Source: a virus
Taxonomy: Duplodnaviria > Heunggongvirae > Uroviricota > Caudoviricetes
DNA length: 64,000 nucleotides
IMG/VR virus record: IMGVR_UViG_3300037471_001733
Span: 22,201-86,200 of that record
Reading direction: 5' to 3' (one strand)
Shown here: in pieces, positions 3,728 to 54,973 of the stretch
Position numbering within the stretch: the first letter of the stretch is position 1
How the letters are laid out: every line of letters starts with the position of its first letter
The notes under the pieces: model-generated
Told to the model about the DNA's origin: nothing
Seen by the model: only the letters and a program-made list of their open reading frames with translations
Databases searched by the model: none
Program-made: the position numbers and the translations under genes

Positions 3728-4455
3728 TGCGCGGACCTCAGTCGGAATTGATGCATGGAACGAGGGGCCTGTGACTGGCTGCTGCCGGAGCCGAGAACTT
3801 CGATGGCGGCCAGCGTCCAGGTCTGTGAAGCGGGGGCCGTCATGCCAATCGCGTAGGTGCCAGTGGCGCCTGAATCGGCGTGGTAGCCGTGGTACACGCA
3901 GTACTCGTTGGCCAGTGTGTCGTTGTTCTGCGCAACGGCAGCAGTGCGCTGCGTGAACGTCCCGGCATTGCTGCGGTATGTCTGCGATGTCAACGCAGTG
4001 GCCGCACGGTCGCCGATGAACATCACCGCCGCCGAGTTGGCCCCGGTGGTCGTCAAGTTGACGGACGGAGCCGTGCCGGTACCGGAGCCAGAGACAACGG
4101 CACCGACGCCGCCAGCACTGCGGAACTGGTACGCCGTCGCGCCGAACACGATGCCATCGTCTCCTTCAGTGCCAGCGCCGCGCGAGACCGAGATCGTCAC
4201 GGACGCTGCCGTGGACGCAGTGGCGGTCCAGATGTAGAGCTCAGCGTGCGACGAGTCGACCGCGACGTCCGCGCGTTGCGTGTACGTGTTCGTCGCGCTG
4301 TCGCTAACGACTAGGCCGTCAATGTGCGATTTCAGGGTGCCAATGACGACGATCAGGTCGCCAACCTGCGTCGTGAGCGACATGGTCAGCGCGCTGCCGA
4401 AGGCCTGGGCCCATGTGCTCGTGTTTACGCTGGTGACAAAGGTTGGTGCTGCCAT
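3724..4455 (-). CDS. hypothetical protein (243 aa), Thr/Ser/Ala/Gly-rich beta-type, virion module
   Basis: ORF packed 3 nt after the beta-helix gene; no motif recognised. Confidence 0.6.
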   Translation of the reverse strand: MAAPTFVTSVNTSTWAQAFGSALTMSLTTQVGDLIVVIGTLKSHIDGLVVSDSATNTYTQRADVAVDSSHAELYIWTATASTAASVTISVSRGAGTEGDDGIVFGATAYQFRSAGGVGAVVSGSGTGTAPSVNLTTTGANSAAVMFIGDRAATALTSQTYRSNAGTFTQRTAAVAQNNDTLANEYCVYHGYHADSGATGTYAIGMTAPASQTWTLAAIEVLGSGSSQSQAPRSMHQFRLRSAQ

Positions 4456-11756: not shown

Positions 11757-13513
11757 GGCGTCAGGACTTCCCAGAATGACTTTCCAGTGGACTCGGTGGT
11801 TCTGGACATCAAGCCCACGGCCATCACAGCCGCCACGATGAGGTCGATGCGGCCCGTGGCCTTTTCCTTGCTGAGCTTGCGGTTCTCGGCGTCATCCATC
11901 ACCGTCACCGCGTTGCTCGCACACCAGTTGAAAACTGGGTGGTCGTTGTGCGCCAACTCGTTGTTGAGCAGCATTCGCTCGAACTCTTCAACGGCTGGCG
12001 AAGCCTCTTTGTAACCTTGCCCGAACGCGACCATGGGCGGTAGGCTGATGCCTTCGTCGTCGGCAAGCGCCAGCAAGTCTTCGATGCGCCAGCGGTCGTA
12101 TGCGACGCCCTGGATCTCGAATGCCTCGGACAGCGCGGACAGCCGCTGCAGCACGTTGCGCTTGCTGATCGCGCGCCCCGGCGTGGTGTCCAAGTGCCCG
12201 GCAGCTTTCCACTGCACGTAGGGCACTCGATCGGTTTCGGCCTTCTTCTGCAGCCCCTCATCAGGCAGCCAGGCGAACGGCACTAGGTGCCACGGCTCGC
12301 CTTCCTCTTGCGGCTCAACCAGCAGCACCAGCCCCGTAAGGTCGGTGGTGGACGACAGGTCCAGCCCGGCCCAGGCTCGCCGGCCGCGCAGGTCTTGCCA
12401 GTTGAAGGTGCGAATCGCACTCTTCCAAACGTCGGCCGACAGCCACGGCGAATCGGCATCCGTCCACTGGCAGAAATTCAGCCGGCGGACGATCGCCTCC
12501 TTAGACGGCATGCCGCGCGCTTCGGTCACCTGCTCGCGCAGGTACTTCATGCCCGGCAGATCGGCGTCCTGCAGCGAAGGGTTGGCCTTCACCCAGCACG
12601 ACTCGTCCGAGAAAGGATCCTCGCCTTCATCTAGGGCGCACACGAAACTGAAGAACGCATCGTCCTCCAGCGTCCCCGCTGCGACCTTTGCGCCGTACTC
12701 GTGGTACGCCCAGCACGGCCCCCGTTTGTCGGAGCCGCTGTTGGTGATCATGAAGATCAGCGCCTGCCGCCGGCTCTTGGTGCCGGCGCGCATCATCTCC
12801 ACGACCGTGTTGGTCTTGTGCTCGTGCAGCTCGTCGATGAGCGCAATGTGCGGCCGCGGGCCGGACTGCCCATCGTCCGAGCTGATCGGGCGGAAGAAGC
12901 TGCCGGCCTGCAGGTAGGCCAGGTTCCACACCCGCTCGCCCGTGCCGCTCTTGGTCAGCCGCTTAGCGAGTTCCGGCGACTGGTCCACCATGGCCACCGC
13001 GTCGCGGAAGAGGATCATGGCCTGATCCTTCTTCGTCGCCGCAGCGTAGACCTCTGCGCGCGCCTCGCTGTCGGCGGTCAGGCCAAGAAGCCCAATGCCC
13101 GCCGAAAGGGGCGACTTCCCGGAGCCCTTGGCCGTCTCGACGTAGGCAACACGGAACCGCCGCCAGCCGTCAGAACCCTTCCAGCCGAACAGACTGCCGA
13201 TGACGAATTTCTGCCACGGCAGAAGCTCGAAGGGCTTTCCCTCAAAGTCGCCGCCGTTGAGCTTCAGGACGTTGCGGTAGTACCGCAGCGCCTTCAGGGC
13301 GGTCTCCAGGTCCCAATTCAGGCCGCGTGCCGGGCCTTTCTCCAGGTCGCGCAGGTGGCGCGCGCATGCCGCGCGCACATGCGGGCCGGCGATGCGTTTG
13401 CCGTCAACGACGGATTGGGCGTACTCGGTGACCGGATCGTCACCAGTCGGGACGTCAGCCGAAGAATTCCTGTAAGTGGTCTTCCTTTTGGTCGTCGTCG
13501 GCGTTTTGGACAT
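11753..13513 (-). CDS. terminase large subunit (Terminase_1 type)
   Basis: 586 aa; Walker-A-like VETAKGSGKS, LIDELHEH Walker-B-like, C-terminal nuclease region; follows TerS. Confidence 0.9.
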   Translation of the reverse strand: MSKTPTTTKRKTTYRNSSADVPTGDDPVTEYAQSVVDGKRIAGPHVRAACARHLRDLEKGPARGLNWDLETALKALRYYRNVLKLNGGDFEGKPFELLPWQKFVIGSLFGWKGSDGWRRFRVAYVETAKGSGKSPLSAGIGLLGLTADSEARAEVYAAATKKDQAMILFRDAVAMVDQSPELAKRLTKSGTGERVWNLAYLQAGSFFRPISSDDGQSGPRPHIALIDELHEHKTNTVVEMMRAGTKSRRQALIFMITNSGSDKRGPCWAYHEYGAKVAAGTLEDDAFFSFVCALDEGEDPFSDESCWVKANPSLQDADLPGMKYLREQVTEARGMPSKEAIVRRLNFCQWTDADSPWLSADVWKSAIRTFNWQDLRGRRAWAGLDLSSTTDLTGLVLLVEPQEEGEPWHLVPFAWLPDEGLQKKAETDRVPYVQWKAAGHLDTTPGRAISKRNVLQRLSALSEAFEIQGVAYDRWRIEDLLALADDEGISLPPMVAFGQGYKEASPAVEEFERMLLNNELAHNDHPVFNWCASNAVTVMDDAENRKLSKEKATGRIDLIVAAVMAVGLMSRTTESTGKSFWEVLTP

Positions 13514-13928
13514 GAACCTTGGACCTCGCGGCCGGCGTCAGCCCGAACTCGACCAGCCACGCCTTGAAGCGCCGGTCGGCATCGGCCAGCATGGCCACCG
13601 CCGGGTTCGCTTTGATGCTGCGGTCGCCCTGCGTGTTCGTTGTTTCGTAGGTAGGGCCGTCCTGGTTCACCAGTTCCTGATACCGCAGGATCTCGGCGTA
13701 CACGGCGCAGCCTCTCTCAAGGGCGTAGGCATCGGCCTCGGTTAGCACGCCCATCCGATCCAGCAGCACAGACATGCGGCCCCAGGCAACCTTGGCCTCG
13801 TCGGACAAGTGGCTGGGGCAACTAGGTATCTCGCGGCGTGGTTTGGGCTCGCTCTTGTTGAGCGCGCGCCTTCCCGGGTTGCCTGTAACTATTTTTAAGT
13901 GGCTCGGTTTTGGCCTGCGCCCCGCCAT
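13455..13928 (-). CDS. terminase small subunit, P27 family
   Basis: MAGRRPKPSHLKIVTGNPGRRALNKSEP...CPSHLSDEAKVAW matches P27-family TerS pattern. ATG 13928 chosen (AAGGA RBS, 4 nt after HNH stop); alternative ATG 13955. Confidence 0.8.
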   Translation of the reverse strand: MAGRRPKPSHLKIVTGNPGRRALNKSEPKPRREIPSCPSHLSDEAKVAWGRMSVLLDRMGVLTEADAYALERGCAVYAEILRYQELVNQDGPTYETTNTQGDRSIKANPAVAMLADADRRFKAWLVEFGLTPAARSKVHVQNADDDQKEDHLQEFFG

Positions 13929-13932
13929 ATCT

Positions 13933-14214
13933 CTATTCCTTGACTGGCCAGCCATCCACCCCGATCACCGGCCGAACTCGATGACCTAGATCTCGCGCCG
14001 TTTTGTCACGGTGACAGGGGGTACATAGCCCCTGAGCCTGGCCCGGGTCTTCGTGGAAGTCCTTGCCGCCGTTGACTAGCGCGACTTTGTGGTCCAACTG
14101 AGTTGCGGCAGCAAGTCGGCCATGGCGTGAGCACTCAGCACAAAGCGGGTTCAGCCGCAAGTAGTAGTCGCGGAACCGCTGCAGCGGGCGGCCACGCAAG
14201 CGATCAGTGGCCAT
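13933..14214 (-). CDS. HNH endonuclease (terminase-associated, HK97 gp74-like position)
   Basis: 93 aa; CAECSRHGR...LDHKVALVNGG...CTPCHRDKT HNH motif; immediately upstream of TerS. Confidence 0.85.
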   Translation of the reverse strand: MATDRLRGRPLQRFRDYYLRLNPLCAECSRHGRLAAATQLDHKVALVNGGKDFHEDPGQAQGLCTPCHRDKTARDLGHRVRPVIGVDGWPVKE

Positions 14215-14223
14215 GCGCGCCTC

Positions 14224-14263
14224 GGGAAAGAAAAGGCCCGCCTGCCGGAGAGCCGGGGCGAGC
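14224..14263 (-). terminator. rho-independent terminator downstream of the tRNA-like gene
   Basis: Extended imperfect hairpin centred on CCGG-AGAG-CCGG (14245-14256) followed on minus strand by CCTTTTCTTTCCC. Confidence 0.55.
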
Positions 14264-14272
14264 AGAAACCTG

Positions 14273-14359
14273 TGGCGCGGACGGCTGGGCTCGAACCAGC
14301 GACCTGCAGCGCTGGTCTTTGCGAACCCGCTGCTTCTCTACCGGCTGAGATACGCCCGC
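14273..14359 (-). tRNA. tRNA-like gene (87 nt) with non-canonical 28-nt anticodon arm; anticodon not assignable; possible pseudo-tRNA
   Basis: Hand fold: acceptor GCGGGCG/CGTCCGC + G + CCA, D arm TCTC-AGCCGGTA-GAGA, T arm GCTGG-TTCGAGC-CCAGC. The anticodon region GCAGCGGGTTCGCAAAGACCAGCGCTGC is 11 nt too long. Confidence 0.55.
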
Positions 14360-14363
14360 GTCG

Positions 14364-14394
14364 GAAACGAAAAAGCCCGCGCGAGGCGGGCTTT
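14364..14394 (-). terminator. rho-independent terminator after the zinc-ribbon/HNH gene
   Basis: AAGCCCGC(14373-14380)/GCGGGCTT(14386-14393), then TTTTTCGTTT on minus strand, ending 5 nt before the tRNA-like 5' end. Confidence 0.65.
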
Positions 14395-14552
14395 GAGAAA
14401 TCTGCAGAGACACCTATCCCACGGACCTGTCGGAATTGGGATAGATTCACCGGGAGGCCGTAAGCGTAGCCGGCGTGGGCCAATTGTACGGCTTGTTGTC
14501 TTGCACACGCAACAGGGGCTGTCAAGGGCTCGCGAGCGACGCCCACATATCT

Positions 14553-15449
14553 CTATAACCCCAACTGCAGTTGACCAAGAGACTTGCTTCCCTTGGACCG
14601 GTTGCACCCAAAGCACTCGCACTGCGTGTTGCTATAGCTGTGTGGACCTCCATCGCGCAGGCTGACAACGTGACCAAGCTCCGGTGCGCCCTCAATCCTC
14701 TTGCCCATCTTCGACCTCGGCGTCTTAATGCCGCAAATCTTGCAGCGCCAGCCGTCGCGCTCAAAGACAGACAGCTTGTCCACCTTCTCGTACTCGCAGC
14801 CGAACTTTCTGGCGCGACGCCGATGCGTGGTGCCGCTAGTGGCTCTGTAACGGTAGCTCAGCTGACAGGCTATCGAGCAGTACTTTTGGCGCAGGTCGCC
14901 ATAGTCCGGCGTGAACGCAACTTCGCAGAAGCCGCACTTGCGAGGCGACCGGTCGCGGCTACGCTCTTGCTTCTTCCGATTGTAAACCTTGCTCCTGCAT
15001 TTGCTGCTACAGAAGTTCGCATCCGGCATCTTGGCCATGAAGTCGCGCCCGCAGGACGGGCTGGCGCAGACCCTGGCATAGCGCAGCTTATTCTGGCCGC
15101 GCTCCTTTTTCTCCGGCGCTGGAACGCACTCATAGCAGAACTTGCGCGGCTTGCCGTTCTTAAATAGTGGCTTTGGGTGGCGGCAGCCGTTTTCATTCCG
15201 GGTCCTGCACTCGTCGGAGCAATGACTGCGGCGCAGCTTCGTCGGCTTGAAGGGCATTCCACAGTAGGCGCATAACCGCGGCGGTTTCGGAGGCACGGGC
15301 GGATTCTTCCGTGGTCGTCCAGCGCCAGGACGGCGGCCGCCAGAGTTTGGACGCGGGCCACCGCGCTTTGAACGCGACGCCTCGACCAGTGCGCATAGCG
15401 CGCCTTTGCAGCCGCCAACAGACAGCCGCCTATACTCGCCTTCAACCAT
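14553..15449 (-). CDS. multi-zinc-ribbon protein with C-terminal HNH endonuclease domain (298 aa)
   Basis: Four CxxC...(F/Y)CSxxC repeats, Lys/Arg-rich, then WRCKICG...ELGHVVSLRDGGPHSYSNTQCECFGCNRSKG HNH motif. Confidence 0.75.
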   Translation of the reverse strand: MVEGEYRRLSVGGCKGALCALVEASRSKRGGPRPNSGGRRPGAGRPRKNPPVPPKPPRLCAYCGMPFKPTKLRRSHCSDECRTRNENGCRHPKPLFKNGKPRKFCYECVPAPEKKERGQNKLRYARVCASPSCGRDFMAKMPDANFCSSKCRSKVYNRKKQERSRDRSPRKCGFCEVAFTPDYGDLRQKYCSIACQLSYRYRATSGTTHRRRARKFGCEYEKVDKLSVFERDGWRCKICGIKTPRSKMGKRIEGAPELGHVVSLRDGGPHSYSNTQCECFGCNRSKGSKSLGQLQLGL

Positions 15450-15649
15450 GCTGACTTCCTATACAAGTTGGTATGGCCAGAGACCCGGTCGTGTTGCAAG
15501 CGCGACTGGGTTTCGCCATTTTGGCCTAGAACCAACAAATCTGCTGGACAAAACCACAGTTCCCAGGGCGCCAAGAATTTCCTCTCAAAACGCGCCTCTG
15601 AACAGCAAGGTCAACCGATGGTTTACAAGCCGAGGGCTGGGAAGAACTG

Positions 15650-16200
15650 ATTGGGGTATTGGGGGGTGCGCCTCGACTCTCCCCACGCCCAGCCGCGCCA
15701 GCTGTCAGCGCACGAGCTGCCGCTCAGCACGAGCTGCGCCGCTCGATCCCTGCTGGTGCTGGTGCTGCGCGTTGTCACGAGGGGTGCGGCGCCGCCTGGC
15801 TGTCGAGTGCCTGCGGTTATGTGGCGAGGGTCTGCCGCTGCGCCAGTGCACCCGGGCCGCTGCGCGGCCGTGCTCCTGGTGGTGGCGTGCTGGAGCTCCG
15901 ACCGATCGGCGCAGGCAAGCGCCATGGTGCGAACGGTGCACGAGGGAATGCGGCGCAGTGCTGGTGCCTGCGGCTTAGTGGAGTGCTGCGGCTTTGTGGA
16001 GTGGCGCAACTAGTGGAGTGCGCCGTGCTGCAGGGCATGGCGCCATGGACAGGGGTGCAGCGCTGCTGCGCCGCTGGTGCTGTCTCACCCGTGCCGATCG
16101 GCTTCCGCTGCAGGGGCGCTGGTGCTGGAATGCAGGCACCAAAGCAAAAGGGCCGCACGAGGCGGCCCATGGCGTGGAGTGCTTTGGTCTAGGTGCTGGC
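15650..16200 (+). repeat. non-coding, strand-asymmetric GTGC(T/G)G-rich array (array L)
   Basis: About 20 GTGC vs about 5 GCAC by hand count; local tandem units (GCACGAGCTGC x2 at 15709-15745; T(A/T)GTGGAGTG x3 at 15976-16022); no credible ORF. Confidence 0.6.
16141..16169 (-). terminator. rho-independent terminator ending the leftward small-gene operon
   Basis: GGGCCGC(16150-16156)/GCGGCCC(16162-16168), then CTTTTGCTTT on minus strand, 20 nt after stop at 16189. Confidence 0.7.
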
Positions 16201-16440
16201 GGCTTTCCGCTCCCGTCCTATACGGATGGCATGGGCAAGCGCGGCCATCTCCCGACCGTTGTCGTAAGGGCCGCGCGCCACCGGCTTTTTGCTGATGCCT
16301 GCGGCTGGCAGCAGGCCAACGAAGCCGGCTTCGTCCACGAAGTCTAGATATGTCATGGCGCCGATGGTCTTGACTGCGATGACACAAGCAACGCTGCCGC
16401 CGCCGATGGTGGGGCGCATGAAAAGGTCCCCGGCTTGCAT
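16189..16440 (-). CDS. hypothetical protein (83 aa)
   Basis: ORF, last gene of leftward operon; no motif recognised. Confidence 0.5.
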   Translation of the reverse strand: MQAGDLFMRPTIGGGSVACVIAVKTIGAMTYLDFVDEAGFVGLLPAAGISKKPVARGPYDNGREMAALAHAIRIGRERKAAST

Positions 16441-16452
16441 GGCGTCCCCTCC

Positions 16453-16746
16453 TCAGTGGGCCAGCAGATGCCGCACGCTGGCGCCATCCGGTATCCGCAG
16501 CATTGCCGCCACTGCATCCACGTATTCCGGTGCAGGCCGGCGCAATTTGTACTGCTGGTCTCCATACGAGTTGGGAATGGTGCGCGATTCAATCAAGCCG
16601 CGTTCCCTAAGCGCGCGGAATGCCCGGGTGTCATCTTCTGGCGCCACCTCAGCAGCGGCGGCAATGTCATGCCATGAGGGGAGACGGATAGTCCCGTCTG
16701 CATTGGTACGGGAAGCGAGCAGGGCATACAGACGATTGAGGTTCAT
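16453..16746 (-). CDS. hypothetical protein (97 aa), possible winged-helix DNA-binding protein
   Basis: Internal ATG 16746 chosen (upstream part of ORF is Arg-rich junk overlapping previous gene); FRALRERGLIESR... wHTH-like segment. Confidence 0.45.
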   Translation of the reverse strand: MNLNRLYALLASRTNADGTIRLPSWHDIAAAAEVAPEDDTRAFRALRERGLIESRTIPNSYGDQQYKLRRPAPEYVDAVAAMLRIPDGASVRHLLAH

Positions 16747-16757
16747 GGCGCGGCCCC

Positions 16758-17132
16758 TCAGATGTCCCAGACGCCATCCACGGTCGCGCCGTGCGCCGCC
16801 TCGTGGGCGTGCGCCGCGATGGCCGCCACGAGGCGCCCGCCGGGCGTTGCTTCCAACGTATCGCCCTCGCTGCACTGGTACTGCAGGCACCGCGCCAGCG
16901 AATGGAACCATGCGGCGGTCTGATTTGGCATGGGGCGCGCCAGCAGTGCACGCAGGCCCTGCAGCGGCTGCCGATCCTCCGGGTAACGCCCCTCATAGCG
17001 GGTTGCGTGGGCGTAGTTGTTGGCTGCACGCAGCGAGATAGCCGCCTGCGCCGCATCGTCGGCGATGCCCTGGGAAACGGCCCATTGCGCCACGGTGGCC
17101 ACGTGCAGATCAGAGCAGATAAAGCAAGACAT
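16758..17132 (-). CDS. hypothetical protein (124 aa)
   Basis: ORF with GGAGATCACACCATG RBS context; no motif recognised. Confidence 0.55.
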   Translation of the reverse strand: MSCFICSDLHVATVAQWAVSQGIADDAAQAAISLRAANNYAHATRYEGRYPEDRQPLQGLRALLARPMPNQTAAWFHSLARCLQYQCSEGDTLEATPGGRLVAAIAAHAHEAAHGATVDGVWDI

Positions 17133-17182
17133 GGTGTGATCTCCTATTGCCGCTCATGCTGGCGGCGCAGCGGGTTGAAGGG

Positions 17183-17452
17183 TTAGTCCTCGCGCGGTGT
17201 CTCAATTTGATGCGGCAGGGGTCGCCCCATGCCGTCGGCGCAGTAAAGGGACGTAGAAGCACCGCACGGCAGGTATGCCGGCGCGTCAATTGGCCCGCCT
17301 GCCGTCACATCCATACATGCCCCGTACCGAAATTGCCGCCGGTCTTGATGCAGATGGATCAATTCGACCGTCTGCCGTTGGACTTGCCCGCCGGTCACAT
17401 TGTGGAAAGCGCCAGCAGCAGCGCGGCGGATGGTTTCTGATTGCATGGACAT
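17183..17452 (-). CDS. hypothetical protein (89 aa)
   Basis: Starts at conserved junction TGAGGAGCGAACCATG (17450-17465). Confidence 0.5.
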   Translation of the reverse strand: MSMQSETIRRAAAGAFHNVTGGQVQRQTVELIHLHQDRRQFRYGACMDVTAGGPIDAPAYLPCGASTSLYCADGMGRPLPHQIETPRED

Positions 17453-17462
17453 GGTTCGCTCC

Positions 17463-17681
17463 TCAGTTGAAGCCCTTGTCCGCCTCGATCTGGCGCAGGA
17501 TCTCGACTGCCTCAGCGATCGGCACGAAGTCAGACAGGGGGTCAACAATCGTTTTCTTGCCCACGGTCACCAGCACGACGCGAAACTTTCCGCGCGCCGC
17601 CTCAGTGCTGATTCCGGGCATGCCGGTGGCGGCGCGCGCGGCAAGGGTGGCGGCTCGCAATTGCTTGAGTTGCTCAAACAT
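17463..17681 (-). CDS. hypothetical protein (72 aa)
   Basis: Starts at conserved junction TGAGGAGCGAACCATG (17679-17694). Confidence 0.5.
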   Translation of the reverse strand: MFEQLKQLRAATLAARAATGMPGISTEAARGKFRVVLVTVGKKTIVDPLSDFVPIAEAVEILRQIEADKGFN

Positions 17682-17691
17682 GGTTCGCTCC

Positions 17692-17931
17692 TCAGATACC
17701 GAAAACTTGATTGATCGCAGCGCGGCGCAGTGCCTCGCAGTGCATCTGCGCCACGGGTTGATTGATCTCGTCCACCACGTCAAGTGCATCGTTAACGGCA
17801 TCCATGAGATGCGCCATGGCGATATCTTCCGGGTTTGCTTCTACGTGATTGCGCAACTGCAGGCGGGCGCTCAGCAGGTTTTCGACGATCACGTCGAATT
17901 GCTTGACATGCATGGTCACAGGGGTGGGCAT
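17692..17931 (-). CDS. hypothetical protein (79 aa)
   Basis: Starts at related junction TGAAAGGTCGAGCCATG; helical sequence. Confidence 0.5.
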   Translation of the reverse strand: MPTPVTMHVKQFDVIVENLLSARLQLRNHVEANPEDIAMAHLMDAVNDALDVVDEINQPVAQMHCEALRRAAINQVFGI

Positions 17932-17942
17932 GGCTCGACCTT

Positions 17943-18176
17943 TCAGCGCATGTTGATGTAACCCGGCATGCCGAGTGCGCGCGCCAGCACGTTTGCCGCG
18001 TGGCGGTCTGCAAGGTTGCATATCAGGTACTTGGCCTGCGCGACCGCTTCGAAGTGCGCGCTCTGCGCCTCTTCGTATTCCTGATGGGTTCGATTGCTGT
18101 CGCCGATCATGTGCACGTGGCCACCGATGGCGGGCCGCAATTCCTTGGCGATGCTGATGGCAGTTCGGATATTCAT
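17943..18176 (-). CDS. hypothetical protein (77 aa)
   Basis: Starts at conserved junction TGAGGAGCGAACCATG (18174-18189). Confidence 0.5.
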   Translation of the reverse strand: MNIRTAISIAKELRPAIGGHVHMIGDSNRTHQEYEEAQSAHFEAVAQAKYLICNLADRHAANVLARALGMPGYINMR

Positions 18177-18186
18177 GGTTCGCTCC

Positions 18187-18318
18187 TCAGTGCGCCGCAC
18201 GAATGGCGGCAATGTCTGCATGGATCAGCGCGCGGACTTGCAGGCGGCGCACGAGGGATTGATCGTTGCGCATGGGTAGCAGAACCCGCAGCGCATACAT
18301 AAGAGAGAAACGAGACAT
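18187..18318 (-). CDS. hypothetical small protein (43 aa), first gene of leftward operon
   Basis: Below ORF-track cutoff. ATG 18318, stop inside the conserved junction; MSRFSLMYALRVLLPMRNDQSLVRRLQVRALIHADIAAIRAAH. Confidence 0.4.
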   Translation of the reverse strand: MSRFSLMYALRVLLPMRNDQSLVRRLQVRALIHADIAAIRAAH

Positions 18319-44685: not shown

Positions 44686-45180
44686 GTGAGTGACGACCGC
44701 TTAATCCGTATCAGCAATCTGCGCAGGGTGTGCGCCGAGCGCAGGCTCAAGACCGCCGATCTACACCGGCTCCTGCCCTATGCCCGCTACACCTACTGGC
44801 GTGACGTACTGGAGGGCGACAAGCCCTTTGGAGAGAAGGCAGCGCGCAAGGTAGAAGCCAAGCTCGGCCTGCCCGACCGGTGGCTGGACACGCCGCGGGA
44901 CCCTGTTGAGTTCCGCGAGGTGTTACCCAGCGTGCCCGACGACGACGAAGACGAGCACCCAGATGAAGGGGGCCATGAATCGCACTGGCGCCACATCGCG
45001 GAGCTGTTTGCCGATATCTGCACGGAGCAGGACATCAAGATGCTGCCGTCCACCTTCTTGCTGATCGTTGATGCCGGCGTCCAGCGCGTGAATGAAGCGG
45101 CCGACAAGCGCAAGGCTTCCGAGGTTTTCAGCAAGCTTCTTCGCGTACTACAGCACGGCAAAGACCAAAATAGGGGCTAA
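44686..45180 (+). CDS. CI-type repressor-like HTH protein without recognisable S24 peptidase domain (164 aa)
   Basis: GTG 44686. RISNLRRVCAERRLKTADLHRLL HTH and FGEKAARKVEAKLGLPDRWLD signature of phage CI/C2 N-domains; divergent from cro-like gene. Confidence 0.6.
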   Translation: MSDDRLIRISNLRRVCAERRLKTADLHRLLPYARYTYWRDVLEGDKPFGEKAARKVEAKLGLPDRWLDTPRDPVEFREVLPSVPDDDEDEHPDEGGHESHWRHIAELFADICTEQDIKMLPSTFLLIVDAGVQRVNEAADKRKASEVFSKLLRVLQHGKDQNRG

Positions 45181-45281
45181 TACCTCTTTTCGTAAAACCG
45201 CACCCCCGGGCTTTGCCTTGGCGTAACGAATTACGGAACCTGTAGTTCTTGCAGTAGTCTTCACCACTATGAACCGCACGG

Positions 45282-45596
45282 GTGTTGCGGTTTGGAGCAG
45301 TGGTGGGATCGGTCTGGAACGAAGAAAAGCACGGCAGCCGCCTTCTCGTGGCCGCTAACGAGGGACATGCCCCGGCGCCGACGGAACCCCCGTCGATCAC
45401 GGCGGGGCTGCTGCAGCAGAGATTGCGCAGCAACGCTCCAATCAAGGCCATGAGCAACGCCGCGGCTGATGCCCTGGTCGGGCTGCTCGCTGGCGACACC
45501 GACGCCGCTACGGTGCGCGCGTGGATCGCTGATCTTGACGCCATGGTGCGCAAGGAGATCGTCTTGCCCTCCCAGGGGCCCGTCGGGCTCGCCTAA
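45282..45596 (+). CDS. hypothetical protein (about 104 aa) in rex-like position downstream of the repressor
   Basis: GTG-start ORF between cI-like gene and terminator 45617-45643; start uncertain. Confidence 0.4.
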   Translation: MLRFGAVVGSVWNEEKHGSRLLVAANEGHAPAPTEPPSITAGLLQQRLRSNAPIKAMSNAAADALVGLLAGDTDAATVRAWIADLDAMVRKEIVLPSQGPVGLA

Positions 45597-45616
45597 CCAA
45601 CCCCTTTAAGCAAGCA

Positions 45617-45643
45617 AGAAGCCGCCTTCGGGCGGTTTTCTTG
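45617..45643 (+). terminator. rho-independent terminator ending the repressor transcription unit
   Basis: AAGCCGCC-ttcg-GGCGGTTT stem (45619-45638) followed by TTTTCTT. Confidence 0.75.
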
Positions 45644-45645
45644 GC

Positions 45646-45711
45646 ACACCGTACTGTGTATTTTATCAGTACGTATTTACTTAGGTAATCGAAAAGCACA
45701 CCGTTTTGTGT
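45646..45711. promoter_or_regulatory. operator-like palindromes upstream of the rightward early promoter
   Basis: ACACCGTACTGTGT (45646-59) and ACACCGTTTTGTGT (45698-45711, touching the -35); GTACTG-N10-CAGTAC (45651-72); lower-GC tract. Confidence 0.5.
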
Positions 45712-45740
45712 TGACCGTCGCCGGGCTGCGGTGTTGTAAT
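45711..45740 (+). promoter_or_regulatory. candidate early promoter (PL-equivalent)
   Basis: TTGACC (45711-16), 18-nt spacer, TGTAAT (45735-40). Confidence 0.5.
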
Positions 45741-45781
45741 GACTCCAACGCGCTACACCAAAAAGCGCAATGGAGACGGCA

Positions 45782-46111
45782 ATGAACACCAGTGGCAGCG
45801 GCTACTCCTTCCAGAGTTTTCTGGGGGCGATCCCGGTAACTGTCTTCTATTGGGTAGAAGACGGTTTCGTGACGCCGATGACCTGCGATGTCGGCGGGAA
45901 GGTTGCATCGCTGCTGGATGACGGAGACCACTTCTCTCCGGTGCAGCTTCGCGTTTGGCAGCGCGCCGCCGAAGCCGACTACAGCCGCCGCACTGGCGCC
46001 GACTTCGAGCCCGATCCCACCGACTTCTTCAGCGACCCCGCAGGATGCGCCACGCGCTCGCTGGCCAGCTACTTCGACCGCGTTGATGCGGCTGCTCGGT
46101 GGGGTGCGTGA
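45782..46111 (+). CDS. hypothetical protein (109 aa)
   Basis: GGAG RBS 8 nt before ATG 45782. Confidence 0.5.
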   Translation: MNTSGSGYSFQSFLGAIPVTVFYWVEDGFVTPMTCDVGGKVASLLDDGDHFSPVQLRVWQRAAEADYSRRTGADFEPDPTDFFSDPAGCATRSLASYFDRVDAAARWGA

Positions 46112-46404
46112 TGACCACCCTCTACGCCGAATTCTCTGCCTTCGCCGCAGAGTTCAAAGCCGCCCGCCCCGAGCGCTTCGGCCGCCGTTCTGAACGCGCT
46201 AAACGCTCTGAAGCACCGTTCCGTGGCGTTCCTGCGCGCCTGGACGTTGATGCTGCGCGCGCTGAGCTGAGGGAACTGGTTGCGCGTCACGACGCGCGCT
46301 ATGAGTACAGCGACGACTACTCCGTCTGGGCTCGCGGTCAGGCTGAAGCCCAGCGGATCGCGGATCTGCGGTCGGCGATCGCCAAGGCTGGGGCAGCGGC
46401 ATGA
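46111..46404 (+). CDS. hypothetical protein (97 aa)
   Basis: TGATG junction. Confidence 0.5.
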   Translation: MTTLYAEFSAFAAEFKAARPERFGRRSERAKRSEAPFRGVPARLDVDAARAELRELVARHDARYEYSDDYSVWARGQAEAQRIADLRSAIAKAGAAA

Positions 46405-46769
46405 ACGGCGCACATCTGACTAGCCAGCGGGCCATCAATGGGCCGTCGAAGCCGACAGCCGATGCTCCTGAAGGCGGCGACTACGCCATCGTTGTTGACG
46501 GACAGATCATCGCTGAGGTGTTCTACCGGTCATCGCCCACGCACACGCATGACGCGTGCGCCACTGCCCGCCTGTTCTCTGCCGCGCAGGACCTTCTGGA
46601 CGCCCTGCAAGACCTCCTGCGCGCCAACACCGAGGCGGCGAACTTCTCGATGAGCATGGTCACCGACCGCGAGGAGTTCGATGGCTTCCTGCGCGAGTGC
46701 GAGGCCAAGGTGGATGCGGCTGAGACGAAGGCTCGGGCTGCGATTGCAAAAGCGACTGGAGGCGTGTGA
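46401..46769 (+). CDS. Ead/Ea22-like C-terminal-domain protein (122 aa)
   Basis: AAQDLLDALQDLL...KARAAIAKATGGV; paralogous ending to 38724-39125. Confidence 0.5.
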   Translation: MNGAHLTSQRAINGPSKPTADAPEGGDYAIVVDGQIIAEVFYRSSPTHTHDACATARLFSAAQDLLDALQDLLRANTEAANFSMSMVTDREEFDGFLRECEAKVDAAETKARAAIAKATGGV

Positions 46770-47251
46770 TGCGCGGCGTGTTTGCCGACCTGCGTGACCG
46801 AGTGTTTGGCCGCCTGGTAGTTGTGGACATGCATGACAAGCTGCCCACCGGCCAAGTGCTGTGGCTGTGCCTGTGCGAGTGCGGTGAAACGAAGGCTGTT
46901 CAGAGCGGCCACTTGACAAGCGGCCGCATCAGTTCCTGCGGCTGCCTGAAGCGCGAGAGTCAGCCTGCGCACCTGTGGACCGCCGAGAACATCGCCAAGT
47001 CCAGTGCTGCCCGCCTGACCAAGCGCGCAGCACGCTTTGAGCAGGCCCGCCGCCGTGTATGGGGGCTTCTCACTCCTGTTGAGAGCATCGACCGCCAAGG
47101 TGAGGAGTTCTGGCGTTGCGCGTGTGTGTGTGGTGGAGAAAGAACTGCCTGGGCAGCCGACATACGCCGCGGCAAGACCATCTCTTGCGGCTGCAGTCGG
47201 CGTGGCTTGTCCTACGGCAAGGCTCATGACGGAGTCGCGACATGCGCGTGA
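46769..47251 (+). CDS. Cys-repeat protein (160 aa)
   Basis: Two repeats of W.C.C.CG....V....(L/I)..G...SCGC. Confidence 0.5.
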   Translation: MRGVFADLRDRVFGRLVVVDMHDKLPTGQVLWLCLCECGETKAVQSGHLTSGRISSCGCLKRESQPAHLWTAENIAKSSAARLTKRAARFEQARRRVWGLLTPVESIDRQGEEFWRCACVCGGERTAWAADIRRGKTISCGCSRRGLSYGKAHDGVATCA

Positions 47252-47649
47252 TGCTCATCGCCTGCTCGAAGGCCAAGCGCCCGCACGAAGCGGTTGCGGC
47301 CGAGCTCTACCAGGGCGACCTGTTCAAGAAGGCTCGCGCACTGGCCGAGAATCGCGGGGCCCGCTGGTTTGTGCTTTCGGCCAAGCATGGAGTGGTTTCG
47401 CCCGACCGCGTGCTGCACCCCTACGACGACACACTGGCGCATGCCACGCGGGACCGCCTCGCCGCCTGGAATGCGCTGGTGCTGTCTCAACTGGTCGAGG
47501 CCAAGCTGCTGGCTGAGCCGCTGGAGATCCTGGCTGGCCGCTGCTACCGCGGCTGGGCTTCATGCCTGGATGCGACTGTTCCGATGCGCGGTATGGGCAT
47601 CGGCAAGCAGAAGGCGTGGCTTGCCGAGCAACTGCGGAGGGCTGCGTGA
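47242..47649 (+). CDS. DUF6884-like protein (135 aa)
   Basis: VMLIACSKAKR...ELYQGDLFKKARALAE..GARWFVLSAKHGVVSPDRVLHPYDDTL matches DUF6884 pattern (memory). Confidence 0.5.
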   Translation: MRVMLIACSKAKRPHEAVAAELYQGDLFKKARALAENRGARWFVLSAKHGVVSPDRVLHPYDDTLAHATRDRLAAWNALVLSQLVEAKLLAEPLEILAGRCYRGWASCLDATVPMRGMGIGKQKAWLAEQLRRAA

Positions 47650-47822
47650 TGGCCCGCCGAGACGGTTTAGCACGCGGCTCCAAGTGGCTACTGCCCAGCG
47701 GCCGCGTGGCAACGGTGGATGTCCTGAAGGGCTACCACGTCACGCTGCGGTACGCGGACGACACGGACGAGTCTGTGGAACTGCTGCTGTCGTTCCTGAC
47801 GCAACACGGCATCGAAGTATGA
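47649..47822 (+). CDS. hypothetical protein (57 aa)
   Basis: TGATG junction. Confidence 0.45.
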   Translation: MARRDGLARGSKWLLPSGRVATVDVLKGYHVTLRYADDTDESVELLLSFLTQHGIEV

Positions 47823-48043
47823 GCAGCCTCACCGAAGCCACGCTGGCCGAAGGCGACTTCACTGCCCGCGAGCGCGCACTGTTGCAGGCGCTCCAGCCGT
47901 TCGCTTACTACGGAAGCCTCGACGGCACCGTGCATCACTTTGCCGCGCTGTTCCCTGTGCACGAGCGCGAGCGGATCAAGGAAGAGTTTGCGCGGGCAAC
48001 CCGCGTGTACCGGAAGGCGACTTCCGCCAAGGAGGAATCGTGA
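47819..48043 (+). CDS. hypothetical protein (74 aa)
   Basis: ATGA overlap. Confidence 0.45.
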   Translation: MSSLTEATLAEGDFTARERALLQALQPFAYYGSLDGTVHHFAALFPVHERERIKEEFARATRVYRKATSAKEES

Positions 48044-48456
48044 ATGCTGTCATCGAATCTTGGTTCCCATCGAGGGCGAAGAAGCCCGCGAAGCCACAGC
48101 AAACCCGCCTAGGCCGTCGCCGGATGCTAGACCTCAACACCATCGCGCCGGCTGCGGTCCCCGGCCCGTACATCAAGCGCGCTGGCGACCGCTGCCTGTA
48201 CGCCGAAGTCGGCGGTGAGATGGTGCTGCTGGGCATGGCGTTCCAAGGTCTGCACCCGACGATCACCCCGGCGATGAGCGAAGCGACTGCGCAGCAGTTC
48301 AAGGCGGCCCCGGACCTGTTTGCGGTGACGCTGGAGCTGGCGCGGCTGGCCGACCAGGCGCACGAGCTTGATGAGCAGGCGCTGCGCCAGCGCGTTGCTG
48401 CGCTGTTCGACCCGGCTGAGGTTGCGCTGGCCCGTGCGACTGGCCTGCTGGGGTGA
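48040..48456 (+). CDS. hypothetical protein (138 aa)
   Basis: GTGA overlap; APDLFAVTLELARLA Ead-like segment. Confidence 0.5.
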   Translation: MNAVIESWFPSRAKKPAKPQQTRLGRRRMLDLNTIAPAAVPGPYIKRAGDRCLYAEVGGEMVLLGMAFQGLHPTITPAMSEATAQQFKAAPDLFAVTLELARLADQAHELDEQALRQRVAALFDPAEVALARATGLLG

Positions 48457-48459
48457 GTC

Positions 48460-48675
48460 ATGAGCGCGCAACTCCACCAATCTGCGATCCGCATCCTGTT
48501 TGCGGCCCGACAAGCTGACCCGCTGCAGGTTGATGCGCTGATCGCTCGGCACGAGCGTGAGTGCGTCGCCGAGATGGCCGAAGAGGCAGCGGCTGGCCAA
48601 CTGACGTGCCCGCCGTGCACGAGAAATTGCAGCCAGGGCCTCACCTGTCCTGCCCGTCAACAGAAAAATGGTTAA
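48460..48675 (+). CDS. hypothetical protein (71 aa) with C-terminal Cys cluster
   Basis: ORF; CPPCTRNCSQGLTCP. Confidence 0.45.
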   Translation: MSAQLHQSAIRILFAARQADPLQVDALIARHERECVAEMAEEAAAGQLTCPPCTRNCSQGLTCPARQQKNG

Positions 48676-48685
48676 GGAGCCGACC

Positions 48686-48943
48686 ATGGACCAGAACAGC
48701 GCCATCCTTTATCGCCGCGCCCGCGAAGAAGACTTTGTGGACACGGAGCCGGCAGCGTTCGACGGCCACATCCCGCTGTCCGAGTGCAGCGAGGAAACGC
48801 AGTCCCTCTGGGCCGAGCACCAGATAGCGGCCTGCGCGCGCTGCCGGTATGGCTGCAACCCGCCGCTGCCGAGTTGTACTGGCGGCATCGGCATCAAGGA
48901 GATCTTGGGATTTCTGTTCTATCCCCTGGCGCGGAGGGCTTGA
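48686..48943 (+). CDS. hypothetical Cys-containing protein (85 aa)
   Basis: AAGGAG RBS 7 nt before ATG 48686. Confidence 0.5.
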   Translation: MDQNSAILYRRAREEDFVDTEPAAFDGHIPLSECSEETQSLWAEHQIAACARCRYGCNPPLPSCTGGIGIKEILGFLFYPLARRA

Positions 48944-48944
48944 A

Positions 48945-49103
48945 ATGCTGGATCACTACTTCCTGGCCGGCGACGGCCCCAAGGAACTGATCGACCGTGA
49001 GTTTGTGCGCACGCGCAACGACCGGGCACGGTCGCTGGTGTGGGACGTGCTCGCCTTTGTCGGCGGCATCGGCCTGTTCGTGCTGTCTTACCTCAGCCGC
49101 TGA
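48945..49103 (+). CDS. small C-terminally membrane-anchored protein (52 aa)
   Basis: LVWDVLAFVGGIGLFVLSYL TM helix. Confidence 0.4.
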   Translation: MLDHYFLAGDGPKELIDREFVRTRNDRARSLVWDVLAFVGGIGLFVLSYLSR

Positions 49104-49112
49104 AAGCAAACC

Positions 49113-49604
49113 ATGACCGAAAAACAAACAATCACCGAAGAGTCCGGTATCCACAATGAGTGGTACGAAGAGGCCAAGAAAGTCACGCTGGAAACTCTGC
49201 CGGCCTTCGTCACCAAGCTGTGCAACGACTACTCGCACGACTACGGGACCATCTGCCACGCCATGGCTGCCGCGATGACGGCGGCCATGAACGCAGTGGA
49301 CAGTTCGCCTACCGGTGGCATCACCGGATTCCAGGCCGGCTGCGTCATGTGGATGGTGCTGAAGCACGCATTCCACAAGGATGGGCCGATGTCTCTCGTG
49401 GACTGGACGAACCTGCTTTATCCGCAGTACGCCGATCGCTTCACCACGATTCCCAAGCAATCCTGGGAACGAGTTCGCGAGATAGCGCAGAAGAAACTCA
49501 GTGAAGACGACAAGCGTTACTGGTCGCTAGGCGTGCTGTCTCACATGCAGTCCATCGCTGAACACGGTATCCCGCCCTTCGGGCTGAAGGTTGCCGCCAA
49601 CTGA
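49113..49604 (+). CDS. hypothetical protein (163 aa)
   Basis: ORF; lower-GC codon choice at N-terminus; no motif recognised. Confidence 0.55.
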   Translation: MTEKQTITEESGIHNEWYEEAKKVTLETLPAFVTKLCNDYSHDYGTICHAMAAAMTAAMNAVDSSPTGGITGFQAGCVMWMVLKHAFHKDGPMSLVDWTNLLYPQYADRFTTIPKQSWERVREIAQKKLSEDDKRYWSLGVLSHMQSIAEHGIPPFGLKVAAN

Positions 49605-49658
49605 GCTACGGGCGCACCGGCTGCCCTGACGCCGGCATCCAACCTCTCGGAGACCGCC

Positions 49659-50366
49659 ATGACGTATCGTGCAGTTGACCCTTTGACCGGCAAGTCCATA
49701 GGCCTCGGCAACTACAAGCCGCGGCCTGAACTGGAGAAGCGCTTGGCCGAGCAGGTGCAGCGCAAGACCAGCGAAGGCACGTTCAAGACCGGCGCCGATG
49801 GGCGCACAACGTTCGTGCCCAAGTTCATTGAGGAGGCAGCTGCGCATGCGGTCACCGCCGCACCGTTGACGCAGTTCAAGCCGGGCGACCGCGCGCGAGT
49901 CATCGCCTCTGCTGCTGAGCTGCACGAGGCCGGCTTCAGCGCGGGCTTCTCCGCATTTCTTGCTGGGCGCGAAGTTGTGATTGAGGAAGAGGCCCGGTGC
50001 GGGTTTGGTCAGGCCCGTCACCTCGTGAGCTTTACCTACACAGATAGTTGGGGCGACTCGGCCAGCGTCAGGGCGGTGTTCCTGAGTCGCATCCATGAAG
50101 CCGAGGGCGACGACGAGCGAGAAGCCATGGGCCTGACCTCGGCTGAGGCTGGCGTGCTGTCGCCTAGCGAGGCCGCTCGGGAATTTGATCCGTTCGCGGA
50201 GCCGTTGGGCATTGGCGACTACGTGGAATGCGTACGCGAAGACAGCATGCTCTTTGGCTGTCGCGGAGAGGTTGACCAAATCGACGGCACATGGGTGCAC
50301 GTGCTTGGGCTTGGCGGGTGGGATGCCGACCATCGCCACTTCCTGAAGCTCATCGCCAAGGCCTGA
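49659..50366 (+). CDS. hypothetical protein (235 aa)
   Basis: ORF; no motif recognised. Confidence 0.55.
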   Translation: MTYRAVDPLTGKSIGLGNYKPRPELEKRLAEQVQRKTSEGTFKTGADGRTTFVPKFIEEAAAHAVTAAPLTQFKPGDRARVIASAAELHEAGFSAGFSAFLAGREVVIEEEARCGFGQARHLVSFTYTDSWGDSASVRAVFLSRIHEAEGDDEREAMGLTSAEAGVLSPSEAAREFDPFAEPLGIGDYVECVREDSMLFGCRGEVDQIDGTWVHVLGLGGWDADHRHFLKLIAKA

Positions 50367-50432
50367 CCATCTAACTGATCCATGCCCGGCGCGGGCTGCG
50401 CGCCAATTCCACAGAAGACGGAGACGGAAACC

Positions 50433-51374
50433 ATGACTACTGCACTCGCTCTCATGAGCAACCGCCTGGCGCAACGCTTCGGCATGGTCGAAGACGCCGA
50501 GTTGATTCCTGTGCTCAAGGCAACTGCGTTCAAAGGTCAGGTCAGTGACGCGCAGATGACGGCGCTGCTGATCGTTGCCGATCAATACGGCCTGAATCCG
50601 TGGACCAAGGAAATCTACGCTTTCCCAGACCCGCAGAACGGCATCGTGCCGGTGGTCAGCGTTGACGGCTGGAGCCGCATCATCAATGAGCACCCCGCCT
50701 TCGACGGCATTGAGTTCGAGTTGTCCGGCAAGGGCGATGACATGGAGATGCTGTGCCGCATCTTCCGCAAGGACCGCAGCCGCCCGATCGCAGTGACGGA
50801 GTACTTGACCGAGTGCAAGCGTGAAACGAAGCCTTGGAAGTCTCACCCGCGACGCATGCTGCGTCACAAGGCTGAGATCCAATGCGCCCGATTGGCCTTC
50901 GGCTTCGCTGGGCTCCACGACCACGACGAGGCGGAGCGCATTGTGGAAGCATCGTCTGGCGCACCGAAGAACATGGGGGCAGCCCAGGTGGTCGAGGCCG
51001 CCGCAGCTGCGGAAATGCCGCTCGGCCTGCTGGAGTCAGCCGAGAGCGCTGCGACCGAAGGGGTGGCCATCTATCAGGAATTCTGGAAGTCAACCGGCCC
51101 GGAAAACCGCAAGGCGCTGGCTGGCCACCATGCGCGGCTGAAGCAAGCAGCCATTGACGCCGACGCGGCGCGCACGGTGGAGATGCCCACGACCGGCGGC
51201 CAAGCCGAGCAGCCCACGCTGGACCTGGTGGCGCTGGAGCGGCGCATCGGCAGCTGCAACGACGCTCAGGTGTTGCTGCTCATTGCCGACGACGTGGCCA
51301 CGCTGCCCGAGGGTGAGGATCGCGCGCGGCTGGAGAAGTTGATCGCGGTGCGCGGCGAAGCGCTGGAGGGCTGA
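50433..51374 (+). CDS. bet: single-strand annealing protein, lambda Bet (Red-beta) homolog
   Basis: Long near-identical blocks to lambda Bet from memory: LLIVADQYGLNPWTKEIYAFPD.QNGIVPVV.VDGWSRIINE, HP.RMLRHKA.IQCARLAFGFAG..D.DEAERI. Confidence 0.9.
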   Translation: MTTALALMSNRLAQRFGMVEDAELIPVLKATAFKGQVSDAQMTALLIVADQYGLNPWTKEIYAFPDPQNGIVPVVSVDGWSRIINEHPAFDGIEFELSGKGDDMEMLCRIFRKDRSRPIAVTEYLTECKRETKPWKSHPRRMLRHKAEIQCARLAFGFAGLHDHDEAERIVEASSGAPKNMGAAQVVEAAAAAEMPLGLLESAESAATEGVAIYQEFWKSTGPENRKALAGHHARLKQAAIDADAARTVEMPTTGGQAEQPTLDLVALERRIGSCNDAQVLLLIADDVATLPEGEDRARLEKLIAVRGEALEG

Positions 51375-51377
51375 TCT

Positions 51378-52064: not shown

Positions 52065-52321
52065 TGGCAATCGACAAGTCCCTGCGCGGCGGCCAGTTCG
52101 AGACCGTCTACAGGAAGGACACGATTTCGCTCGAATGGGTGCAGCCGGGTCCAGACAGGAAGTCGCTAGTGCTCGCAACCGTCGATACGCAATTGTGCGA
52201 CGAAGATTTTGCGCTTGAGCAGGCGTTTGCGGAGTTTCAGCGGCACCTGATGTCTTCGTTCCTCAAGCACAGGCTGGGCTTTGTCTCGGTTAGGCCGGGA
52301 GACGGGCCGGACACGCACTAG
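52064..52321 (+). CDS. hypothetical protein (85 aa)
   Basis: TGATG junction with exonuclease gene. Confidence 0.5.
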   Translation: MAIDKSLRGGQFETVYRKDTISLEWVQPGPDRKSLVLATVDTQLCDEDFALEQAFAEFQRHLMSSFLKHRLGFVSVRPGDGPDTH

Positions 52322-52341
52322 ACACTTTTCGGGCGATCCCA

Positions 52342-52397
52342 GCGTGATGAGCTTTTTCCAATCTTCGTCTCCTCCCTAGCGGGCTTGCTCATCACGC
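52342..52397 (+). promoter_or_regulatory. perfect 11-bp inverted repeat with 34-nt pyrimidine-rich loop in the leader of the deazaguanine cassette
   Basis: GCGTGATGAGC (52342-52) / GCTCATCACGC (52387-97); loop contains TCTCCTCCC. Confidence 0.45.
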
Positions 52398-54507: not shown

Positions 54508-54509
54508 CC

Positions 54510-54965: not shown

Positions 54966-54973
54966 CGAGCACC

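Follow-up and report, generated by a model that had tools for sequence, protein, structure and literature searches.

The tRNA genes of phages are commonly taken either as codon supplements or as a means of replacing tRNAs that host defences have cut. Phage 933W carries ileZ-argN-argO near stx. The late region of Shiga toxin (Stx) phages includes tRNAs close to stx, and the tRNA genes of lambdoid and Stx phages, which follow a promoter-proximal terminator and precede late genes (PMC7946995), agree in position and orientation with the gene that concerns us here, an 87-nucleotide (nt) tRNA-like gene on the minus strand of a 64,000-nt stretch of Caudoviricetes DNA (positions 22,201 to 86,200 of IMG/VR record IMGVR_UViG_3300037471_001733; the whole stretch is called the window). 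Relatives of the window phage extend the likeness, as they hold ordinary tRNAs (Gly-UCC and initiator-type Met) at this spot. Unlike the lambdoid phage tRNAs, however, the window copy carries a 28-nt hairpin without an anticodon that cannot supplement decoding, and no Q homologue was identified upstream of it. Comparison of sequences places the gene in a set of long-armed tRNA-likes that recur at one fixed place among a group of temperate phages.

tRNA-like processing modules are known from the mascRNA of MALAT1, the TMERs of murine gammaherpesvirus 68, and mitochondrial tRNA punctuation. In our working model, the window element resembles these in being a non-decoding tRNA shape within a longer transcript and a substrate for RNase P and 3′ enzymes, whereas they differ in being eukaryotic, viral, or organellar and of unrelated sequence, and the processing of the window element is a prediction. 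Frameshift-suppressor tRNAs, such as the tRNA-Gly derivative sufD, have 8-nt anticodon loops. The window gene likewise combines a tRNA-Gly-type body with an 8-nt terminal loop, but its bulged stem of 9 to 10 base pairs (bp), rather than 5 bp, is too long for the decoding centre, and the loop is not conserved between orthologues. YrlA, a bacterial Y-RNA-like tRNA mimic, is a non-coding RNA that copies the tRNA D/T elbow and has a long helix in place of the anticodon arm (PMC4201824); it ends in a long helix and its "acceptor" is loop-closed, whereas the window gene ends in a normal acceptor stem with CCA. Rfam gave no match of the gene to any Y RNA family, and no search for an Rsr/Ro gene was made. 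Irregular bacterial or phage tRNA-like genes, namely, the Bacillus cereus tRNA-Other and allo-tRNA-like sequences, also break the cloverleaf rules and may be regulatory rather than decoding, but their irregularities reside in the acceptor/T branch (8/4, 9/3) or in loops and not in an elongated anticodon arm (PMC5389517). In the literature, we found no described class of long-armed phage tRNA look-alikes or of tRNA decoys.

A tRNA body with an expanded anticodon arm

The gene and its arm are located as follows.
14273..14359, minus strand: tRNA-like gene, 87 nt, with a tRNA-Gly-type body, a 28-nt extended anticodon arm, and an encoded G73-CCA
14306..14333, minus strand: expanded anticodon arm, GCAGCGGGTTCGCAAAGACCAGCGCTGC, 28 nt where 17 nt are expected

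The acceptor stem consists of 7 bp (GCGGGCG/CGTCCGC) with one G.U pair; U8, A9, and A26 are present, the variable loop is AGGTC, and the gene ends in G73-CCA. The D arm (TCTC-AGCCGGTA-GAGA) contains A14, G18, G19, and A21, the T arm (GCTGG-TTCGAGC-CCAGC) is canonical, and all bases involved in tertiary contacts (U8, A14, G18, G19, A21, G53-C61, T54, T55, C56, and A58) are in place, as they are in the copies of the related phage loci L002 and L120. Rfam family RF00005 matches the gene end to end (48.7 bits against a gathering score of 29; model positions 1 to 71; E value, 3.9e-9) in a search of 1.1 kb, a match that the speed filters discard in a search of the whole window. An earlier note on this DNA had folded an 87-nt tRNA-like gene with acceptor stem, CCA, and D and T arms at this position, and both the sequence and the RF00005 match bear this out.

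Between A26 and the variable loop lie the 28 nt of the arm, GCAGCG-GGT-TCGCAAAG-ACC-AG-CGCTGC, which fold into 6 bp, an AG bulge, 3 to 4 bp, and a loop of 6 to 8 nt; the RF00005 alignment puts 18 nt at the 7-nt loop of the model. The earlier note had also remarked on the 11 extra nucleotides, the want of an assignable anticodon, and a bulged hairpin without a 7-nt loop or U33. These observations hold, as no seven-base loop with U33 and R37 can be placed and the gene fails the definition of a canonical anticodon arm (5-bp stem, 7-nt loop, U33, and a purine at position 37). Nor had a canonical cloverleaf simply been misfolded by hand, to judge from default ARAGORN, which finds no tRNA in the whole window. 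A tmRNA was likewise reported neither by ARAGORN, which also searches for these, nor by Rfam. We conclude from the sequence that this tRNA-like gene has no usable anticodon arm and cannot read codons.

An intron- or insert-bearing tRNA that matures into a working decoder, another option of the earlier note, is extremely improbable, and we have rejected it. In intron mode, ARAGORN does read the window copy as Glu(ttc) interrupted by a 9-nt intron, but this intron sits at 39/40 instead of 37/38 and its removal leaves the loop GGUUCGC with G33 and a 6-bp stem, while the L002 orthologue is called Gly(gcc) with the intron set before the anticodon. The loops of the two orthologues, UCGCAAAG and CAGCCAAG, have no anticodon in common, and the calls that ARAGORN makes with its -i and -ps options contradict each other between them (Glu versus Gly/SeC). 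Since the orthologues are 87% identical and yet are assigned different anticodons and intron sites, we regard the intron calls as forced fits. A brute-force excision of one contiguous insert produced zero solutions with a 5-bp stem and a U33/R37 loop in the window copy and six other expanded forms, and Rfam held no intron match for the 11-nt insert. A length of 11 nt is far below the size of a self-splicing intron, and the archaeal splicing endonuclease is not known from bacteria.

As to the origin of the body, metagenomes scanned for the pattern of the 3′ half yielded canonical tRNAs in which the T arm and 3′ acceptor strand are identical to those of the window copy, mostly Gly (CCC or GCC) with U73. 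One match, a tRNA-Thr(GGU) in a tRNA cluster, shares the acceptor stem, T arm, G73, and CCA. The anticodon stem of the window copy (GCAGC/GCTGC) resembles that of the tRNA-Gly(UCC) gene of L120 (GCAGT/GCTGC). On the strength of this resemblance and of the mostly Gly matches, the body appears to be tRNA-Gly-like. The arm sequence was found in exact and degenerate searches of viral contigs only in L002 and L081, and the 20 matches in a one-genome-per-species collection all proved to be chance or ordinary tRNAs on rescoring; this near absence elsewhere suggests that the subfamily is rare. Of note, the 5′ part of the arm, CAGCGGGTTCG, is similar to the 5′ strand and loop start of the T arm, TCGCTGGTTCG, in the window copy and not in L002. 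This similarity allows the arm to pair with the 3′ T stem in the predicted minimum-free-energy (MFE) structure, and it could reflect either a partial duplication of the T arm or a competing fold.

Relatives at the same spot and selection on the fold

Relatives were collected as 80 viral loci through the terminase small subunit (TerS). The nearest homologues of the terminase large subunit (TerL) are from Burkholderiales (Azohydromonas, Noviherbaspirillum, and Alicycliphilus), and among isolated phages, a Ralstonia phage and a Halomonas phage come nearest (64 to 66%). In L002 (TerS, 82% identical), an orthologous element, which ARAGORN labels SeC, occupies the same spot with an arm of 29 nt. L120, which is the closest relative by its small HNH protein (88%) and recurs as the same phage in a second sample (L243), has the same promoter-like block and terminator, behind which lie a canonical tRNA-Gly(UCC) and, after a single base, a second look-alike. 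The body of this look-alike is very similar to that of the window (GCGGACG..., T stem GCTGG/CCAGC, U73-CCA), and its arm of 25 nt, an 8-bp stem with a 9-nt loop, is unrelated to the 28-nt arm of the window. Default ARAGORN distorts the D arm and so labels this copy tRNA-Ile(gat). The pair of tRNA-Gly(UCC) and look-alike (L120, 313-473; L243, 2027-2187) is identical in the two independent samples, and the flanks differ by a few single-nucleotide polymorphisms.

Expanded forms of other shapes occur in L014 (2554-2636; a 7-bp stem and an 8-nt loop in a 33-nt middle), in L019 (3001-3093), L027 (900-992), and L028 (3000-3092), all three with 27 nt at the loop position and a 43-nt middle, and in L066/L067 (1691-1791; a class-II-like body with a 51-nt middle). 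Between L019 and L027, a change from G.U to G-C keeps the inner hairpin. The look-alikes in the TerS relatives start 1 to 10 nt after a terminator tail "...TTTTTCGTTTC" and lie ahead of HNH and terminase genes. Initiator-type (Met) tRNAs are found at this spot in L044 and L079, and L013 has a tRNA-Trp upstream of HNH-TerS, but with no terminator directly before it. With our own scanner, 47 class-I-sized tRNAs were counted in 1.9 Mb of fetched loci; the aberrant forms were all expansions, with zero contractions.

Selection was gauged by comparing the window with its L002 orthologue, that is, two sequences with 88 aligned positions. The two RNAs differ at 11 of these positions (12.5%), as compared with 0.335, 0.443, and 0.632 of the four-fold degenerate sites in the adjacent TerL, TerS, and HNH genes, and even at the lowest of these four-fold rates, 11 differences or fewer would arise with a binomial probability of 6e-6. 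Of the 25 cloverleaf pairs, 24 are kept and only 27-43 is broken; both partners have changed in four pairs (10-25, 29-41, 30-40, and 51-63), two of them in the extended arm, and one partner has changed in two pairs. This pairing signal is lost when the partners are slid by 1 to 3 columns. The rate of change is a stronger argument for selection than the covariation. For the leader that separates the promoter-like block from the terminator, the two phages gave no alignment at all.

With 24 of 25 pairs kept and 11 of 88 positions changed against 34 to 63% of four-fold sites, the comparison shows at the level of sequence that selection has maintained the fold together with its long arm. The body evolves slowly and the arm fast: about one-third of the arm positions differ between the window and L002 with the pairing kept, and in L120 the arm is wholly replaced. 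Since the extended arm is common to the window and L002, it must be older than their split, and the constraint has therefore acted on the long-armed form.

Such phage genes are not confined to this group, as irregular tRNA-likes also occur in unrelated contigs. The form in L188 (9464-9552, minus strand) is Met-like, bears A33, and has a long variable hairpin; that in L218 (minus strand, 129 nt) combines a body of class II with a middle of 77 nt; and in L112 (4312-4446) about 63 nt separate an acceptor-plus-D arm from an anticodon arm of the Arg(UCU) type. A "tRNA-Arg" of 95 nt that ARAGORN called in L221 was discarded as a false positive within coding sequence.

The probable operon leader and a separate cos-like motif

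The features around the tRNA-like gene are listed in minus-strand order.
14553..15449, minus strand: gene for a 298-amino-acid (aa) HNH endonuclease, located upstream of the promoter-like block and missing from the corresponding place in L243
14483..14525, minus strand: promoter-like block, with TTGACA at 14525-14520, TTGCGT at 14512-14507, an 18-nt spacer, and TACAAT at 14488-14483
14411..14447, minus strand: leader hairpin with a CTATCCC/GGGATAG inverted repeat, not conserved in relatives
14361..14394, minus strand: strong intrinsic terminator, with a 9-bp stem (14394-14372), a 5-nt loop, and the tail TTTTTCGTTTCCG, ending 1 to 2 nt before the tRNA-like gene
14225..14262, minus strand: bulged G+C-rich hairpin (about 14262-14235), then CCTTTTCTTTCCC; terminator-like, weaker
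13933..14214, minus strand: small HNH endonuclease gene, 93 aa, the first gene after the tRNA-like gene
13455..13955, minus strand: TerS gene (P27-type, Terminase_4), whose true start is likely the ATG at 13928

The order is thus 298-aa HNH gene, promoter-like block, leader hairpin, terminator, tRNA-like gene, bulged hairpin, 93-aa HNH gene, TerS, TerL, and portal, and the tRNA-like gene is co-oriented with the HNH, terminase, and structural genes. The promoter-like block is kept in L120, L243, and L003 and is a putative promoter. The inverted repeat (14444-14438/14420-14414), to which the earlier note had drawn attention, is present as 7 bp of a hairpin that extends to 10 bp and is not kept in L120. 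The upstream terminator, in which the 9-bp stem is followed by the T-rich stretch TTTTTCGTTTCC, is kept in L002, L003, L120, and L243, so that the start of the gene a few bases behind a terminator stands as first described. The description of the gene as boxed in by terminators goes too far: the downstream bulged hairpin is not called by a consensus terminator scan, is not conserved in relatives, and is absent in L002, and it is a plausible but weaker terminator.

A 17-mer from the terminator tail, GGGCTTTTTCGTTTCCG (14361-14377, minus strand), is found exactly in at least 120 IMG/VR contigs (loci L124 to L242) behind many unrelated hairpins, where by a rough estimate only a handful would be expected by chance, and the bases after the T run are oddly constant. 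A blastn search of the gap against phage records gave 127 matches, all on the terminator and none on the tRNA-like gene; the wide distribution of the 17-mer explains these matches, which are in Vibrio, Ralstonia, Pseudomonas, and Xanthomonas phages.

Upstream, the 298-aa HNH protein has several CxxC pairs in its N-terminal two-thirds, and its gene sits between a putative cos-like region and the promoter-like block. The lack of a gene at this position in L243 suggests a mobile HNH insertion. Farther upstream lies a G+C-rich stretch of some 480 nt in which CAGCAC and CCAGC are frequent and which aligns between the window (15620-16100, minus strand) and L243 (1204-1690); it contains no convincing open reading frame (ORF), and an 18-nt unit occurs three times at 15968-16021. 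At 45000 to 62000, the minus-strand phage genes of the window give way to a long run of co-oriented plus-strand ORFs, which might belong either to a second phage-like module or to the remaining arm of the same prophage.

The earlier note had expected cos in the 340-bp gap that holds the tRNA-like gene. A conserved motif, GTGC.C...CCGCGAAAT...TTTTTT, lies between HNH and TerS in L002 (about 3958-3995), L014, and L019, and about 130 nt upstream of the promoter-like block in L120 (6-42; GTGCGCAGGCCCGCAAATTGGGGCGGTTTTTTCGG) and L243 (1718-1755). From its position, we would guess that it is a candidate cos or terminase site. The motif has no match in the window, where the alignment with L243 points to a weak, diverged counterpart at about 15560-15625 (minus strand), upstream of the 298-aa HNH gene and thus outside the gap. 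L002 holds its look-alike at the same place as the window and the cos-like motif elsewhere; the motif and the tRNA-like gene are thus separate elements, as the sequences compared show.

This also bears on the idea that the element is a DNA-level site, a cos for terminase and HNH or an attP, that merely resembles a tRNA. The element does adjoin the HNH and terminase genes, and because HNH and TerS abut in the window phage, cos must lie elsewhere than between them. Against such a site stand the pairing-preserving changes, which point to a constraint at the RNA level, the separate motif in L002, and the lack of the element in L003, whose TerS is closer than that of any other viral locus and whose HNH and TerS genes abut in the same way. 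As for attP, which the earlier note had considered as a tRNA fragment, the gene is a full cloverleaf and not a 3′ piece, and no integrase gene was found among the 20 neighbouring window ORFs tested, nor was an RNA-repair, ligase, tRNA-related, or transferase gene. Hence, a DNA site is among the least probable of the readings considered, and hardly to be expected. True 3′ tRNA-Gly fragments that start in the anticodon stem, as in att-site duplications, do occur in L109 and L119 (second match), in contrast to the complete cloverleaf of the window.

Possible roles of the look-alike

The gene is a non-decoding, tRNA-Gly-derived look-alike in what would be the leader of an HNH/terminase/portal/structural operon. 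The role that we tentatively put forward for it, and that may well prove wrong, is that of a cis processing ("punctuation") module. RNA polymerase would have to read through the terminator, and only then would the tRNA-like gene be transcribed, as are the lambdoid-phage tRNA genes downstream of the late promoter. The 5′ end could be cut by RNase P and the 3′ end trimmed back to the encoded CCA by tRNA 3′ enzymes, for both of which the look-alike is a plausible substrate, given its intact acceptor/T minihelix, elbow, and RCCA end. The long arm would keep it out of the ribosomal decoding site, since a tRNA shape whose arm has about 4 bp in excess cannot bridge the decoding and peptidyl-transferase centres. 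The look-alike would thereby separate the terminator-bearing leader RNA from the mRNA of the packaging genes. Its persistence might be favoured because a bulky arm would render a former tRNA inert and harmless rather than mis-decoding. The promoter-like block, leader, and terminator seem to resemble a lambdoid late leader.

Several observations weigh against this proposal. A tRNA or look-alike of any kind occupies this spot in only about 10 of the 80 TerS-related loci; the element is dispensable, since in L003 (TerS, 83%) the HNH gene comes straight after the same terminator, without it; and the L002 element ends in CCC, so that the CCA is not conserved. The MFE structure of the window copy by nearest-neighbour prediction is not the cloverleaf but an alternative fold (-40.8 versus -36.4 kcal/mol, a gap of 4.4), whereas the cloverleaf is the MFE structure of the L002 and L120 copies. 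The covariation comes from two sequences only, and its observed values were reached in 18 of 500 shuffles. The promoter-like block is not called by a strict sigma-70 scan, and no match to a Q-type antiterminator family was found for the four upstream ORFs at 16189-18221, nor was one found for the upstream ORFs of L019, L002, and L243, although a divergent regulator might escape such a search. With neither a recognised antiterminator of this type nor a sigma-70 call, the late-operon and antitermination part of the proposal is an analogy. Moreover, a cis role alone does not explain the well-formed long hairpin arms, and an accessory element with a fast-changing arm suits a role in host interaction at least as well.

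The last point leads to what we see as the main rival of the processing module, a trans-acting mimic that serves as a decoy or competitive inhibitor of a tRNA-binding factor, such as a host anticodon nuclease of an anti-phage system or another protein that binds the elbow or acceptor. Once processed, such a mimic would retain the surface formed by acceptor, T arm, and elbow and present an anticodon arm of non-standard form. The body is conserved and the arm differs in each close relative, the presence or absence of the element resembles that of counter-defence cargo, and the aberrant forms are all structured expansions. There are many tRNA-cleaving defences, to which phages reply with variant tRNAs, and some of these defences recognise the shape of the anticodon loop (bioRxiv 10.64898/2026.07.14.737667). 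Still, we consider a decoy unlikely, as it would need a high copy number and the gene sits behind a terminator, no partner was found, with no RNA-repair, ligase, or tRNA-related gene among the 20 neighbouring ORFs tested, and our literature searches turned up no earlier case of a phage tRNA that acts as a decoy without decoding. When the same phages were searched for sequences antisense to the loop, only scattered 8-mers came up, in no consistent position. The more specific version, in which temperate phages of Burkholderiales-type hosts carry tRNA-Gly-bodied, fast-evolving, long-armed mimics as late-expressed trans decoys or inhibitors of tRNA-recognising host factors, is less easy to credit.

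Improbable, too, is a decaying pseudogene, a phage tRNA-Gly with an insertion in the anticodon loop that is heading for loss and has no present function. It would account for the rejection of the window copy by ARAGORN and its predicted MFE structure other than the cloverleaf, for the loss of the element in L003, and for the odd tRNA-likes in L188, L218, and L112. It is hard to reconcile with an arm older than the split from L002, with the low rate of change relative to neutral sites since that split, with four compensatory changes against one broken pair, and with tertiary-contact bases that are intact in every copy; the pseudo-tRNA of the earlier note, taken as inert, meets the same difficulty. 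A non-ribosomal aminoacyl carrier, charged through acceptor-stem identity and giving up its amino acid outside translation, or a synthetase sink is very doubtful. The acceptor stem is of the Gly type (G1-C72, C2-G71, G3-C70), the L120 copy also has U73, and the canonical T arm makes binding by EF-Tu or a transferase conceivable. However, the discriminator is G73 in the window and L002 and U73 in L120, and L002 is without CCA. C35 and C36 are identity elements of glycyl-tRNA synthetase, and these positions are absent here; no transferase gene was found among the neighbouring ORFs. Of the four options that the earlier note had left open, the tRNA mimic or insert-bearing non-decoding tRNA fits.

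In conclusion, the conserved non-decoding fold and the recurrence of long-armed versions at one place point to a use of the tRNA shape outside translation, as a processing signal within the transcript of the packaging genes or as a mimic directed at tRNA-binding proteins. Standard tRNA finders miss such genes or mislabel them (SeC, Pro, Ile, or Glu), which leaves them unannotated. Should the mimic reading be true, an RNA-based player would be added to the conflict between phages and hosts over tRNAs, and a late-expressed family of such mimics would represent an RNA-based counter-defence not yet described.

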